In this document: one piece after another, positions 2,510 through 41,861 of the stretch | How the letters are laid out: every line of letters begins with the position of its first letter | Position numbering within the stretch: the stretch's first letter is position 1 | From: a virus | DNA length: 64,000 bases | Strand: one strand, 5' to 3' | Virus record (IMG/VR): IMGVR_UViG_3300022839_000007 | Span: 64,001 to 128,000 of that record | Notes under the pieces: generated by a model | Seen by the model: only the letters and a program-made list of their open reading frames with translations | The model's database searches: none | Told to the model about the DNA's origin: nothing | Translations under genes and position numbers: made by a program

Positions 2510-3202
2510 ATGTATGACATAGTATTTATTAGTTATCAAGAACCCAATGCAGATGAAAATTACGCTGCATTAAAGGAAAAGTTTCCAACGGCTAAACGCA
2601 TACACGGTGTTGCAGGAATTCATCAAGCCCATATTACAGCAGCAGCAAAATGTTTTACAAAAATGATATGGGTTGTAGACGGCGATGCAATCATATTACC
2701 TACTTTTGATTTTACATATAGCGTAGATTTATATAATTTAGAAACAGTACATGTATGGCGGAGTCAAAATCCTATCAACGATCTTGTATACGGATACGGA
2801 GGAATAAAGTTGCTTCCGAGGAATCTCACAATAAACATGGATGTTAGCAAGCCAGATATGACTACTAGTATCAGTTGCAATTTTCGAGCAATGTCTGAAA
2901 TTTCAAACATCACATCTTTTAACACCGACCCGTTTAGTACCTGGCGTAGTGCATTTAGAGAATGTACCAAGCTTGCATCTAAAGTAATTGACCGACAGAA
3001 CGACAACGAAACACAACAAAGATTACATACATGGTGTACAGTAGGAGTAGATAGGCCGTATGGCAACTATGCACTTGCTGGAGCAAAAGCAGGAGCAGTA
3101 TACGGTTTTCAAAATCAAACTAATATCGTTGCTCTTAAAATGATCAACAACTTTAGTTGGCTAAAGGAGAAGTTTGATGATACATTCAAGCAAGTTTTTT
3201 GA
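2510..3202 (+). CDS. Glycosyltransferase-like protein (GT-A, DxD)
   Basis: DIVFISYQEPNADEN, VVDGD, YGYGGIK, WRSAFREC; paralog of 190..1110. Confidence 0.65.
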   Translation: MYDIVFISYQEPNADENYAALKEKFPTAKRIHGVAGIHQAHITAAAKCFTKMIWVVDGDAIILPTFDFTYSVDLYNLETVHVWRSQNPINDLVYGYGGIKLLPRNLTINMDVSKPDMTTSISCNFRAMSEISNITSFNTDPFSTWRSAFRECTKLASKVIDRQNDNETQQRLHTWCTVGVDRPYGNYALAGAKAGAVYGFQNQTNIVALKMINNFSWLKEKFDDTFKQVF

Positions 3203-3821
3203 TAATTTTGGACAATTTATTTCTCGATACCCTGATACAGATTTAATTGATCTGTTTTCAAAGGGACAAATAGAATCTAAGCGTTGGTTAGTAAATACGG
3301 TAATAAATTTAAACTTAGATTTAGGATCTGTCTTTTTATGTGCAGGGTGGTATGGAACTCTGGCAACGTTTATATTTGAATCTGGCATACCACTAACACA
3401 AATTAGAAGCTTTGATATAGACCCAATTTGTGCTGGTCGTGCTGATTCATTTAATCGTTGTTGGGTAATAGATGGGTGGAAATTTAAAGCTAGTACACTT
3501 AATATACACGATATGACTTATCCATTAACATACACAACAATTAGAGCTAACGGTACGGAGGCAGGCTTATGTGAAACTCCAAATTCAGTCATTAATACAA
3601 GTTGCGAACATATTGATAATTTTTCTAAATGGTATAAAAAAATTCCCAACGGAACACTGCTAATACTACAAAGTAACAATTTCTTTGAAATATCAGATCA
3701 TATTAATTGTGTCAAAAATAATGACGAATTTGCATTGCAGACCCCTATGTCTGTTGAATTATTTAATGACGAACTAGAATTACCAGCGTATAAAAGATTT
3801 ATGCGAATTGGATATAAATGA
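3174..3821 (+). CDS. Class I SAM-dependent methyltransferase-like protein
   Basis: LCAGWYG motif I-like, RSFDID, INTSCEH. Confidence 0.6.
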   Translation: MMIHSSKFFDNFGQFISRYPDTDLIDLFSKGQIESKRWLVNTVINLNLDLGSVFLCAGWYGTLATFIFESGIPLTQIRSFDIDPICAGRADSFNRCWVIDGWKFKASTLNIHDMTYPLTYTTIRANGTEAGLCETPNSVINTSCEHIDNFSKWYKKIPNGTLLILQSNNFFEISDHINCVKNNDEFALQTPMSVELFNDELELPAYKRFMRIGYK

Positions 3822-37805: not shown

Positions 37806-38882
37806 TTACCAACTAAACAAATTGCTAAATGTATTATGACGTTTAGTACTTTCTAAGTCGTAGTTTAGCACACCAATTAAGTTGTCTAATTTATTATCAA
37901 TAATTACTTCTTCCATTGCACTGTCGTCAAATGGCAATTCCTTAAACCATGCCGGCATACGCATTTCGTCAGTAGGATATGCAACGCTAGTAAATCCCAA
38001 CGGATTAGCTTTAACTTTACAAACGATTACTTTCATTCCGTCGACAATTTCTTGAGAATAACGATCGCCGTTCATTCTTTTAAGTGTGTTCCAGTTAATG
38101 CTTGCTCTAACATGTCCTGGCATGTTTGCCTTGCCTTGTTTTTCTTCCAGTCGCTGATAGTGCAAAATATTGTTTGCACGTTTAGGAGATCCCTTTTCGT
38201 ATCCAGGCCGATCTTTAAATTCTTTACGAAATTCAGTGATTGCATCTAGAATATCACTCTCGTTGGCTTTTTGTAAAACCATCATCAATAAAGTGCTAAG
38301 GAAAGTTTGCATAAACAAAGGAGTGTCCGATCTCTTGAGATCTAACCCCATAGCTTTAACTTTACCGGGTTTTCCGTCGACGTCTTTTCTATGTCCTTCA
38401 ACATCAATAACCAGTGCAGCATATCGTTTTTTAGTAATGAACAACCCGGTTTCTGCAACAATTTCTCGTCCAGCTGCAATAACGTCGGACCTAGACTTAG
38501 GGCAATGAAATGCTTGTGCCATAAATTTTTCAAACGTTGTATTTGCTTGATCAGCAACTTGATCATATAGTTTAATGGCGTTTTCTTTATTCCACGGAAC
38601 TTTTCCTGCTGCTACATCGTCTTTTATCATCGGCCATGCACTGAAATATACCGAGTTATGTATTAGGATGTTGTTAGCAAAGAACCAGGGCTGGTCGCTA
38701 TTTTTCATTCCTATATCATATACATATTCGTCGTTGGCTTTTCGAACTTTAGTAACTCTTTTAACTTTGCTTCGAGATAGACTTAGTTTTTTAGATCCAA
38801 CCTCATTGAGAAATTCCTTTACTGCAAAAGCAACTTCCTCTTTAGTTGTTGCTGATAATATCTTGATTAAGTTATCTTTCAT
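37806..38882 (-). CDS. DNA polymerase B C-terminal segment preceded by C-intein
   Basis: VYDIG..FFANNILIHN|SVYF, then KKRYA, KAMGLDLKRSD. Confidence 0.9.
   Translation of the reverse strand: MKDNLIKILSATTKEEVAFAVKEFLNEVGSKKLSLSRSKVKRVTKVRKANDEYVYDIGMKNSDQPWFFANNILIHNSVYFSAWPMIKDDVAAGKVPWNKENAIKLYDQVADQANTTFEKFMAQAFHCPKSRSDVIAAGREIVAETGLFITKKRYAALVIDVEGHRKDVDGKPGKVKAMGLDLKRSDTPLFMQTFLSTLLMMVLQKANESDILDAITEFRKEFKDRPGYEKGSPKRANNILHYQRLEEKQGKANMPGHVRASINWNTLKRMNGDRYSQEIVDGMKVIVCKVKANPLGFTSVAYPTDEMRMPAWFKELPFDDSAMEEVIIDNKLDNLIGVLNYDLESTKRHNTFSNLFSW
38655..38882 (-). other. Split intein, C-fragment (76 aa)
   Basis: Block F VYDI, block G HN, +1 Ser; basic. Confidence 0.9.
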
Positions 38883-38991
38883 TCATTCTACCATTTTAAT
38901 ATCTGTTGTTCTACTAGGTTAGTATTTGCTGTGTAGTGGACTAACCCGCTTTTTTGCCGTTACGTTTGATTGTTTAATAATAAAATTTAAA

Positions 38992-39521
38992 TCATACCTG
39001 ATAAATGTTAAGTGTTATTATAATGTCGTCTTCATTAATTTCCAGAGGCTTAACTTCTATTAATTCGCCATTGCGTTCGATCATTACTGAATGATCTTCG
39101 GTTACGATAACTATATTGCCTTCTGAATCCTCGATTTCGTATAAGTCTTTGGAGACTTTGTGGCGATACACATAATTAATATGTCCCATATATGGTTCGT
39201 CTCTTTCTTTATCGTATGACATTACCATTACATCGTCGTCGTGTGCGTATTCCTTATCTCCGTTGTTGGTTTTAATTTCCAGTCTATTGAATAAGCTTTC
39301 GATAGTCATATTTCCTATTGAGGTCTCGATTAGTGAATTTGCTTCACAAGAATCTGTATCTCCGTAGATTACAGCTTTTCCTACATGATCGTATTCGCCT
39401 GTAATAATTTTATTAACTTCGGCACTCATATGCTTAACAATCTGCCTACCACTAAGAGTAGTACTCTGTCCAATTCTTTTATCAAAGAATCTGCATCCTG
39501 GGTTTAAGATAGCACCATACA
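38992..39521 (-). CDS. DNA polymerase B middle subunit, exon 2 (motif B-C) fused to N-intein
   Basis: (L)YGAILNPG..TTLSGR..YGDTD|SCEANSLI; joins 39963..39774 after intron removal. Confidence 0.9.
38995..39351 (-). other. Split intein, N-fragment (119 aa, Ser1)
   Basis: Block A SCEANSLI, block B VTEDHS, acidic tail, then stop. Confidence 0.9.
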
Positions 39522-39773
39522 CATTGATGTTCAGTTAGAATCGTTAATTCCAACCCGCCTTGCGGCTGCTGCATGTTACCATGCAGATCAGACTATATCA
39601 CCATCTGTGTTAACACAGATGTTCCCCGTTTCCACTCACTTGAGTGTACGTCTTTCGACTAGTCGTTGAACCTTCCTAACGCATTAGGCTTGGCTGCTGA
39701 TTGTCCTTATTGGAGTTTCCAGCAATTAGAGGAATTATTCGACCATTGTTGCCAATGGAAGTCGCAGTACTTT
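39522..39773 (-). ncRNA. Group I self-splicing intron (IA2-like), 252 nt, no ORF
   Basis: P AATTGCTGGAAA, Q AATCAGCAGCC, R TTCAACGACTA, S GATATAGTCT; U.G 5' site, omega-G; P7.1/P7.2; splicing restores NSLYG. Confidence 0.95.
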
Positions 39774-39963
39774 ACGAGTTTAGGTTAATCTTCTTGACTA
39801 GTTGGCGTTTATCCCAAAACGTTATTTGATCTAGTATGTAGTCCTTGTCATTAGAAACGACCTTGTTATCCTTGATTTTTAAATTATGATTATCAAGGTA
39901 CAGCGCAATCTTTTTTGGATCAGCGTCGCTAATTAGTTGTTTAAGTTTTTTAATATCTATCAT
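39774..39963 (-). CDS. DNA polymerase B middle subunit, exon 1 (fingers, motif B)
   Basis: AAGGAG SD; FWDKRQLVKKINLNS; apparent TAA spans the splice site. Confidence 0.9.
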
Positions 39964-40022
39964 TGGTATTCTCCTTTAAATATCTAAAAAGATACGGTTC
40001 ATTTTTTCTCTCCGGAGATAGT

Positions 40023-41861
40023 TCATTTATCATTTATTGTATACTTTTTAATATCTTCAGCTAACGTAGGATCAATATTAATGCCAGAATTAAGTTCTGT
40101 CCATAGCTCTAGCATACCCTGAAGCTCTTTACGCTCGCTGTACCATCTCTTAAGAAGTCCGGGAATTACTGCTTCAAATTCGTGTGTGAATATAGTTCCG
40201 TTCGCACTAAGCATCCACGGAGTATTACTATCAAAAATCATATTATAAATTTCAGCAGCACTAAGCACGTCTTGACGCCCGTCTTCCCAATTGACGTGTA
40301 ATGCAATGTCTTTACGTTGTTCCATTACAGCTTCGTATTCTTCAGTAGCAAATCTTCCTTCCCAACTTGCAGCAAAACTCATTTTCTTAAGAGTTATATC
40401 GTCGTGTACTCGTGCTTCGCTAATATGTGGAACAATTTGTCCTATGATACTTTCTGGTGCCATATTCATGCTACGAATCACACTAGGATACAATGAGTTA
40501 AGATCCATACTACCTATCCATTCGTGTAATCCCTTTTTAGGAACCGCGACATATGCACCAGCAGCTTGTGTACTATCGCCGTTATTTTTTCTATTAGGAA
40601 CTTGCATACCTCTTCGATGTGCTTCGTTGATAATTGCTTGTTCAGTTAGTGCTACTGCACCTGCAGTAGTTTGTAGTAATACTGTATTTTCGTGAGCAAG
40701 GACGTTTGCTAAATCAATAAATTTTAGTTTTTTATCTAATTTATCTAGTAACGCAACGTCTTGTCTATTATATTCAATAAATTTTTCAAAATCATTATTG
40801 TATAACTGATCCAATGTACCTTCGTATATTGTTTTGTTCTCGCCTACTTCCATCTCTCCAATTGCATCAAGTCGATAGCTATGACGTTCCTCGTAAGTGT
40901 ATTTGCGATATAAGTTAAGATAATCAAGATGTACTCTTCCGATAGTATCGTAGGTTATGCTAGTTTTTCCGTATTTTTCAAACTCGCGTTTTTTAGGCAA
41001 TTGCCCCCATAAACAGAAGCGTCTAGTATCGTCATTGCTCAATACACGTTTGATACGATTAACAGTATAAGGAACGTCGTACCCTTCGGAATTCCATCCA
41101 CTATGTACATCGGCATCTTCAATTAAGTCTAGAAACATCTGTAACATAGCACGTTCGCCATTACCTTCTGAATCGTTAGGAAACAATATACATTCTTCGC
41201 CCCATCGTTCCTTACATATTGCTTGTGCTTTTTCAAACGGTAATCCTTTAGGAGGCATAGCAACTGTAACTAATAAATCTAACCATTGCAAGTATACAGT
41301 AATAGCAGTAATTGGCATAAATGGATCGTCAGTTGGTGCAAAGCCTCTGCCGGCTTTTAAGTAATCACACCCTGAAATTTGCTTCCACTTTTTTTCTTTG
41401 TGGTTCCATACTTCGTATAGATGCGCATCGGTAATACGCGAAAGTGCATCGACATTTGTATCAATATCTATAACTGTTGACTTTTTTCTAATTTTTACCT
41501 TGTAATCCCTAGGGTACTCAAACGGATCAAAGTCAGTTTCGATATCCCAAAATGCTACATTAAGTTTAGGAGCATCCTGATTAAGATAGTGTTCGCTTAG
41601 GCATTGAAATATTGGATTTACATCAGACTCAAATAATACGTTGCCTTTGTTAATAGCAACTTCTTTTCTATAATCTTTTGTATTTTTACACACAATACGG
41701 CTTAGAGTGTCTCCAAAAATACTCTTGTACTTTCCTCTAGCGTCTTTGTAATAAAATGTATATTTTGCTTGGTATTCTTGATAAATTCGTTTACCTTCCT
41801 TGCGTTCGACTATGTTAATAGTATCGCTGTCCCGGTTAAAGAAGCTGTCAATGTAGGGCAT
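40023..41861 (-). CDS. DNA polymerase B N-terminal subunit (3'-5' exonuclease + motif A)
   Basis: ExoI DIET, ExoII WNSEGYD, ExoIII YNRQD, motif A DLNSLYPS, ends after WYSERK; AAGGAG SD before 41861. Confidence 0.92.
   Translation of the reverse strand: MPYIDSFFNRDSDTINIVERKEGKRIYQEYQAKYTFYYKDARGKYKSIFGDTLSRIVCKNTKDYRKEVAINKGNVLFESDVNPIFQCLSEHYLNQDAPKLNVAFWDIETDFDPFEYPRDYKVKIRKKSTVIDIDTNVDALSRITDAHLYEVWNHKEKKWKQISGCDYLKAGRGFAPTDDPFMPITAITVYLQWLDLLVTVAMPPKGLPFEKAQAICKERWGEECILFPNDSEGNGERAMLQMFLDLIEDADVHSGWNSEGYDVPYTVNRIKRVLSNDDTRRFCLWGQLPKKREFEKYGKTSITYDTIGRVHLDYLNLYRKYTYEERHSYRLDAIGEMEVGENKTIYEGTLDQLYNNDFEKFIEYNRQDVALLDKLDKKLKFIDLANVLAHENTVLLQTTAGAVALTEQAIINEAHRRGMQVPNRKNNGDSTQAAGAYVAVPKKGLHEWIGSMDLNSLYPSVIRSMNMAPESIIGQIVPHISEARVHDDITLKKMSFAASWEGRFATEEYEAVMEQRKDIALHVNWEDGRQDVLSAAEIYNMIFDSNTPWMLSANGTIFTHEFEAVIPGLLKRWYSERKELQGMLELWTELNSGINIDPTLAEDIKKYTINDK

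Follow-up and report, generated by a model that had tools for sequence, protein, structure and literature searches.

We examined the family B DNA polymerase gene (polB) that lies within a window of 64,000 nucleotides, bases 64001-128000 of the 157.8-kb IMG/VR virus record IMGVR_UViG_3300022839_000007, which is ~45% complete. Its closest cultured relatives are found in jumbo phages, with PA5oct/MIJ3 first (43% identity in polB piece A), followed by Phosso, Atu_ph07, and Vibrio phage 2.275.O. For comparison, ~260 related loci, given below as L numbers, were examined out of more than 580 IMG/VR relatives. The gene occupies positions 41861-37806 on the minus strand and is laid out as three cistrons, A, B, and C (the last at 38882-37806), in four coding pieces. 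As judged from the sequence, rejoining these three genes into one polymerase would take self-splicing of the RNA, trans-splicing of the protein, and pairing of subunits. The features, all expressed in coordinates of the window, are as follows, where HEG stands for homing endonuclease gene and IntN and IntC for the N- and C-terminal halves of a split intein.

41861-40023, minus strand: cistron A, 612 amino acids and a stop codon; covers the N-terminal domain, the exonuclease domain, motif A of the palm, and the first fingers helix
40109-40026, minus strand: fingertip tail, cistron A residues 585-612; missing from the nearest relatives
40022-39964, minus strand: A/B intercistronic gap, 59 nt; HNH HEG remnant at 40015-39974 and AAGGAG at 39976-39971
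39963-39774, minus strand: exon 1 of cistron B, 63 codons and a T; head of the fingertip (helix-helix-hairpin module) and second fingers helix to KINLNS
39773-39522, minus strand: group I intron, 252 nt, without an open reading frame (ORF), inside the Leu codon of motif B
39521-39352, minus strand: extein part of cistron B exon 2, TG plus 56 codons, from LYGAIL to VIYGDTD (first half of motif C)
39351-38992, minus strand: IntN, 119 amino acids plus stop (38994-38992); Ser1, NYVYRH, VTEDHS, and an acidic tail
38991-38883, minus strand: gap between the intein halves, 109 nt; twice-deleted remnant of a Vsr-like free-standing HEG
38882-38655, minus strand: IntC, 76 amino acids; linker segment of ~40 amino acids, basic strand, YVYDIG (block F), and ILIHN (block G)
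38654-37806, minus strand: C-extein, 282 amino acids and a stop codon; Ser+1 and VYF, which complete motif C, followed by KKRY, the thumb, and a C-terminal tail

The start of cistron A at 41861 agrees with that of its relatives (MSYVD in L031). The cistron stops within the fingers, having supplied DIETD (Exo I) at residue 106 and DLNSLYPS (motif A) at residue 453, and the ATG of cistron B at 39963 is preceded by the Shine-Dalgarno sequence AAGGAG. Exonuclease and polymerase domains scored above the Pfam cut-offs, with PF03104 (48 bits) and PF00136 (49.4 bits) in A and a further PF00136 match (23.6 bits) in C. A preliminary description of this DNA, made from its letters alone, had divided the gene into four coding pieces, and all of these pieces and their junctions are present, free of internal frameshifts and stops. 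Its statement that no catalytic motif is lost is likewise borne out, as the assembled product keeps DIETD, DLNSLYPS, KINLNS+LYG (motif B), YGDTD+SVYF (motif C), and KKRY. The exact restoration of KINLNSLYG and YGDTDSVYF, which it had also claimed, is confirmed by the relatives: of the first 163 related loci, 147 have a single open frame spanning both KKINLNSLYGA and YGDTDSVYF, and because these uninterrupted genes read across both sites in one frame, both predicted excisions are exact. The uninterrupted polymerase of L007 is an ORF of 893 amino acids; the extein pieces of the window sum to 612 + 120 + 282 = 1014 amino acids, compared with 1012 in the intact Phosso polymerase.

The interruption in motif B is a group I intron that matched the Rfam model RF00028 with 95.4 bits (gathering cut-off, 50) over the full model, positions 1-253. 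An Rfam search of the whole record returned no second group I intron. Exon 1 ends with the T at 39774, and the next two bases complete a TAA codon, so that the unspliced RNA stops at once. In the predicted P1 helix, exon UCGU pairs with GCGA and the 5' splice site falls at a U.G pair; the terminal G of the intron is at 39522. Predicted ligation of T to TG would restore the Leu codon, giving KINLNSLYGAIL as motif B, as found in uninterrupted relatives. Compared with shuffled sequences, the intron is predicted to fold into a more stable structure (z = -3.6). L031 (92.9 bits) and L195, a very distant locus (105.8 bits), have homologous introns at exactly this site. When the window and L031 introns were compared with that of L195, which is effectively one independent comparison, 27 of the 76 predicted pairs were compensatory and 3 were broken or gapped. 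Such covariation is strong evidence that the predicted intron RNA structure is under selection.

A Megablast search against cultured phages matched the intron core only, which is of a phage type shared with Staphylococcus and Vibrio phage introns. The best match of the core in a cultured phage was in Vibrio phage D181 (L167; OZ196140.1, 141117-142009), with 80% identity over 164 nt. There it lies just downstream of an annotated free-standing HEG, in a region annotated as hypothetical proteins only, and probably represents an unannotated intron in another arrangement of HEG plus intron.

The interruption in motif C is a split intein at YGDTD/S, where the slash marks the splice site. Its predicted excision joins YGDTD to SVYF, and the ligated junction would read AVIYGDTD-SVYFSAW, IYGDTDSVYFSAW. 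The first intein residue, Ser1, is invariant. A start at Cys1 was considered and rejected, as the Cys sits at position 2, where relatives have Val (PA5oct and L097). In six relatives, S1, VTEDHS (block B), YVYDIG (block F), and HN/S are invariant, and NYVYRH is invariant too; all predicted catalytic positions (Ser1, the NX His, the block B His, the block F Asp, His-Asn, and Ser+1) are unchanged among relatives that are 43-88% identical. NYVYRH contains the Arg-His NX motif, a signature of Ser1 inteins (Pasch et al. 2023, PMC10189870). Searches against PDB intein chains returned 9hth (E = 4e-11) and PI-PkoII (E = 1e-4) for IntN. The net charge of IntN is -17 and IntC contains a basic strand; charge complementarity between the halves is typical of natural split inteins (PMC2677866).

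The ~40 extra N-terminal residues of IntC correspond to an ancestral mini-intein linker, which joins the halves in the contiguous mini-intein of L087 (191 amino acids, with 70 and 63% identity to the window halves). At YGDTD/S, the element exists in several states: contiguous (L087), split around a large HEG (PA5oct and L088), split around a Vsr-like HEG (L097), and split with nothing but remnants in between (the window and L031). A second, distinct intein allele is found two residues upstream in L089-L096, at YGD/TDSVYF, with Ser1/Thr+1 (for example, L094, 5163-6600). This allele is usually fractured by a Vsr-like HEG of ~320 amino acids, and L093 (5163-5690) has an HEG-less split version. 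With inteins at both YGD/T and YGDTD/S, motif C of this polymerase family has been hit at two adjacent sites.

The break between cistrons A and B falls in the fingertip. In the nearest relatives, the tip of the fingers is short (ERKDLQKMLKKAKDAKNEAEIEYWDKRQ), whereas the window has ~72 extra residues, 27 of them ending A and 45 starting B. This fingertip is homologous to the long contiguous fingertip of Phosso, PA5oct, L168-L171, L173-L178, and L200, and the fingertip of Atu_ph07 is split at the same place as that of the window. The break lies between two fingers helices, such that A ends after the first helix and a tail, and B starts before the second. In an AlphaFold model of a contiguous homologue, the insert has a block-mean predicted local distance difference test (pLDDT) score of ~81-95, and the modeled order is first fingers helix, extended segment, loop, two short helices, β-hairpin, and second fingers helix. 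The window break maps to the loop of this model, with A providing the extended segment and B the helix-helix-hairpin unit. A Foldseek search with the fingertip model gave weak RB69/T4 gp43 matches, and the inserted mini-domain itself was unmatched. Both gp43 split at the fingertip (phages 25 and 44RR) and an engineered, fingertip-split Pfu polymerase are fully active (PMC2988022, PMC3061061). By analogy with these enzymes, we infer that A and the B-C chain would pair non-covalently.

The polB gene of L172 is split at the same fingertip position by ~1 kb (2565-3529) and has neither the intron nor the intein. Its insert contains an ORF of 78 amino acids and, on the opposite strand, a Cys-rich ORF of 232 amino acids that is unrelated to the HEG of L031 described below.

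Several other observations concern the polymerase cistrons and their surroundings. In cistron A, an in-frame insertion of 58 amino acids (41349-41522, minus strand; residues 114-171) stands in the exonuclease domain directly behind Exo I, between DIETDFDP and RGFAP. Its GC content is the same as that of the gene, it has no match elsewhere in the window, and it is missing from all ~160 related loci compared, even the nearest (85% protein identity). The ATG of cistron C directly follows a three-codon mini-ORF (ATG GTA GAA TGA ATG, in the region 38882-38896); L031 has CGA in place of TGA, and its ORF begins four codons earlier. Translation of cistron C may begin by termination-reinitiation. At its other end, the cistron C stop overlaps the TTG start of a downstream cytidylyltransferase-like gene (37812-37378; overlap, 37806-37812), and given this overlap, the polymerase appears to be co-transcribed with that gene.

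We then compared the two gaps with those of L031, a 251-kb contig that is ~71% complete. L031 has the same three interruptions together with an intact HEG ORF of 397 amino acids between A and B, which matched the PHROG homing endonuclease family phrog_655 (E = 9e-35) and the HNH family (E = 2.5e-13). The 59-nt gap of the window aligns to ~45 nt from the start of this ORF joined to ~20 nt from its end, with ~1.1 kb deleted, and a tblastn search with the L031 endonuclease matched the A/B gap with 81% identity over 16 amino acids. A candidate eight-codon minigene in the gap was rejected, as it consists of HEG remnant codons read out of frame. In L195, a remnant from the C-terminal part of an HEG of this family persists (E = 9e-5). 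In L031, the HEG lies 190 nt upstream of the intron, and it is co-inherited with the intron-bearing cistron.

In L031, the gap between the intein halves still contains the final 63 codons of a free-standing endonuclease whose intact form is found in L091 and L094-L097 (E = 6e-12, to the HEG of L097, and 7e-10); for the intact form, the sole PDB matches were to Vsr (E ~0.03). The 109-nt gap of the window has two further deletions compared with L031, leaving ~27 recognizable codons. The joint at which IntN meets the HEG remnant is common to the window and L031, indicating that inactivation of the intein HEG preceded the divergence of these copies. No paralogue of either HEG was found elsewhere in the 158 kb of the record. 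The preliminary description had stated that no endonuclease is left inside the gene; this is correct in that no endonuclease ORF persists, but remnants of two endonuclease genes do.

Of the ~260 related loci, ~240 are uninterrupted, the nearest neighbors of the window included. The split-plus-intron cassette is present in three lineages (the window, L030-32, and L192/L195), the last of which is 43% identical in A, and all three also carry a Ser+1 intein. Outside the window, the triple layout occurs in five separate metagenome assemblies. The intein-only state was seen in ~12 loci and the split-only state in L172 and Atu_ph07. Mapping the interruptions on a phylogeny of relatives, which the preliminary description had proposed, placed the window and L031 each next to uninterrupted loci: in an extein-only tree, the window groups with L098, L008, and L009 (support, 96), and L031 is sister to L075 (support, 100). 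An approximately unbiased (AU) test, for a group named after the first tree had been seen, rejected a clade of the window and L031 (ΔlnL = 260, p = 5e-5).

Sequence identity between these two loci is mosaic. Over the bodies of A and C, nucleotide identity is 60-76%. It rises to 87-100% per 30-nt window from ~40117 to 39522, a segment spanning the fingertip tail, gap, fingertip head, exon 1, and intron; the intron itself is 97-99% identical, compared with ~70% for the exteins. From IntN to the end of IntC (39351-38655), identity is mostly 82-93%, with a sharp fall after HN/S. Outside these two segments, values lie at 60-80%. Synonymous divergence (dS) is 0.13-0.38 for the elements, whereas that of the exteins is saturated and their nonsynonymous divergence (dN) is low; dN/dS is ~0.2 for IntN, IntC, and the head of B. 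The mosaic identity, the low element dS against saturated extein dS, and the AU test lead us to conclude from sequence comparison that the elements were acquired laterally in the window and L031 polymerase lineages, at a recent date compared with the age of the host genes, with purifying selection continuing since.

Together, these data make it probable that the locus is the working family B DNA polymerase gene of a jumbo phage, colonized by two homing-type elements that have both lost their endonuclease genes. The preliminary description had presented a subunit split, RNA splicing, and protein trans-splicing as three stacked mechanisms. The sequence features that predict all three are present; the split and the intron are not independent devices, as they move together with an HNH HEG in a single cassette, and the intein is the other mobile system. 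The first element would be a free-standing HNH HEG inside the long fingertip module, which splits the gene into A and B, with an ORF-less intron 190 nt downstream. The second would be a Ser1/Ser+1 intein at YGDTD/S, fractured by a Vsr-like HEG into halves on adjacent ORFs. Deletion of both HEGs in the window would have left the 59- and 109-nt gaps. We propose that assembly of the enzyme could proceed as follows. The intron would first self-splice, restoring the Leu codon of KINLNSLYG. Three polypeptides would then be made: A (612 amino acids), B-IntN (239 amino acids), and IntC-C (358 amino acids). The acidic IntN and the basic IntC would pair and trans-splice via oxyester intermediates, yielding a B-C chain of 402 amino acids with YGDTDSVYF intact. 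Finally, non-covalent contacts involving the two fingers helices and the fingertip module would hold A and B-C together as the equivalent of a 1014-amino acid enzyme.

Six observations weigh against this reading or parts of it. Cistron C has no clear Shine-Dalgarno sequence. The Pfam Intein_splicing model scored 33.8 bits against a cut-off of 35.8 when scored on the half-domain alone. The record, being ~45% complete, leaves room for a second polB. The two HEG-less deletion junctions specific to the window were absent from viral and metagenome contigs in exact-match scans and consequently rest on one contig. The AU-test group was a post hoc choice. Finally, the 168-nt extein between the intron and the intein is ~78% identical to that of L031 and was not co-converted, so that the two elements may have arrived jointly or separately.

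A more far-reaching reading, which we put forward tentatively and consider unlikely as a whole, is that the split/HEG/intron cassette and the split intein form a linked super-element that is still spreading in marine jumbo phages although its own endonucleases are dead. It would be mobilized in trans by the HEGs of co-infecting relatives and kept because occupied motif B and motif C sites give immunity to HEGs. In line with this reading, three of the three intron-bearing lineages carry the intein, compared with ~5% of other loci, and the truncation of the intein HEG is older than the divergence of the element between the window and L031. The preliminary description had suggested that the interruptions could block homing by competitors; this is plausible, as occupied sites would be both uncuttable and uninvadable, and keeping elements that have no HEG may shield the sites from HEGs of co-infecting relatives.

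Other explanations of the locus were weighed against colonization by two homing-type elements. The intein halves might no longer splice and might merely hold B and C together non-covalently, resulting in a three-chain enzyme. Split-intein halves bind tightly, and the strong charge complementarity seen here would suit such a role. However, all catalytic positions are invariant across relatives that are 43-88% identical, and with an intein of ~195 amino acids left in the motif C hairpin, the active site would probably be blocked; we consider this explanation improbable.

We consider it very improbable that the locus is a domesticated regulatory device, in which the three steps are kept since their ordered assembly gates the timing of replication. 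The triple layout does recur across three lineages, of which two lack an intact HEG, and the elements are under purifying selection, but the latter is expected of any element in an essential gene, where imprecise loss is lethal. The nearest relatives thrive without interruptions, in the window lineage the host gene is far older than the elements it carries, and the HEG of L031 still looks live. No regulatory feature was found, and promoter- and terminator-like sites scanned at the locus were at chance level. The gating of replication suggested in the preliminary description therefore finds no support. Of its phrase "domesticated parasites," the second word stands, given parasites without endonucleases and with HNH and Vsr-like remnants, and the first does not, the elements being young and the nearest relatives uninterrupted. 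These data favor ordinary homing-element dynamics, in which elements invade, lose their HEG, and persist, over domestication or purpose-built control.

Two explanations fare worst. The first, highly improbable, is that this is a decaying copy and that the working polymerase is encoded in the missing half of the genome. The incompleteness of the record would allow it, and an intact polB elsewhere was among the findings that the preliminary description had named as overturning its account. No second polB was found in the record of the window (~45% complete), or in that of L031 (~71% complete), which has the same layout; the window pieces are uncorrupted, their motifs are all intact, and extein dN is low while dS is saturated. 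The second, that the contig is an assembly chimera of an uninterrupted L007-like and an L031-like phage in the same sample, would equally produce the mosaic identity and window-specific junctions not found elsewhere, but we regard it as just as remote, because the cassette is 85-99% and not 100% identical to that of L031, its own deletions stay in register with functional starts and stops, and the layout recurs in five other assemblies.

The preliminary description held that each of the three devices occurs separately in phage polymerases. This needs correction, as each pairing has already been published: the split with HEG and intron in Aeromonas phage 25 and the split intein with HEG in PA5oct/MIJ3. 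Gene 43 of Aeromonas phage 25 (Petrov, Ratnayaka and Karam 2010, summarized in PMC2988022; annotation, NC_008208) is made up of 43A, a free-standing GIY-YIG HEG, and 43B with a group IA2 intron, and the proteins encoded by 43A and 43B are reported to be active and to co-purify (PMC2988022). As in the window, the fingertip is split into two cistrons with an HEG in the gap (intact in L031, a remnant in the window), and motif B, ~60 codons into the second cistron, contains a group I intron lacking an ORF. In contrast, phage 25 belongs to the Straboviridae, whereas the phages here are uncultured jumbo phages no more than 43% identical to PA5oct. The HEG is of the GIY-YIG family there and HNH here, where it is deleted in the window. 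The phage 25 intron is ~5 codons further downstream (after NSLYGAL) and longer, and phage 25 has no intein. The window-type cassette is the phage 25 design built from unrelated parts, with another HEG family and another intron site.

The PolB of PA5oct/MIJ3 (Imam et al. 2019, PMC6892783) has a homologous Ser1/Ser+1 intein at YGDTD/S (53 and 48% identity), whose split point and long IntC linker are also the same. PA5oct differs in keeping an HEG of 560 amino acids between the halves and in having no intron and no A/B split, its long fingertip being contiguous. The window intein is the stage after HEG loss of the fractured polB published for PA5oct/MIJ3. Such a loss is a predicted later step in the fractured-gene model of Dassa et al. 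(2009, PMC2677866), exemplified by the gp41-7 locus without an HEG. Shared with the fractured genes of that study are the split-intein halves on adjacent ORFs and the Vsr-like HEG family. The present case differs in its host gene, polB, in showing the HEG as a sequence remnant, and in having another mobile cassette 170 nt upstream within that gene. A free-standing HEG between the intein ORFs, by which fractured genes are defined, is present in PA5oct, L088, and L097, whereas the window has only its 109-nt remnant. Another naturally split Ser1/Ser+1 intein in a PolB, with the NX His after Arg, is PolB16 OarG (Pasch et al. 2023, PMC10189870). That intein has an atypical split with an IntN of 15 amino acids, in contrast to the split of the window at the canonical HEG site (119/76 amino acids). 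Sequence similarity between the two is marginal (E = 0.2).

An intron and an intein also occur together in one gene in SPbeta bnrdE and in the ribonucleotide reductase and dnaE genes of Trichodesmium, where splicing at both the RNA and protein levels serves a single product. Those cases concern other genes and mostly contiguous inteins, with no added non-covalent split between cistrons. In the literature searched, which lay outside subscription journals, no report of all three interruptions in one gene was found.

As far as we could find, this is apparently the first polymerase gene to need RNA splicing, protein trans-splicing, and non-covalent subunit pairing together. For annotation, it follows that polB of a jumbo phage may span three ORFs. 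The locus and its relatives yield a natural family of Ser1/Ser+1 inteins that are canonically split and contain no more than one non-catalytic Cys; mesophilic members of the class are described as scarce and in demand for protein ligation under oxidizing conditions (Pasch et al. 2023, PMC10189870). The relatives also form a near-complete decay series, in which the HEG is intact, a remnant, or almost gone, and the intein is contiguous, fractured, or split without an HEG. This series makes the homing life cycle, and the mobilization in trans of elements that have lost their HEG, testable in one gene family.

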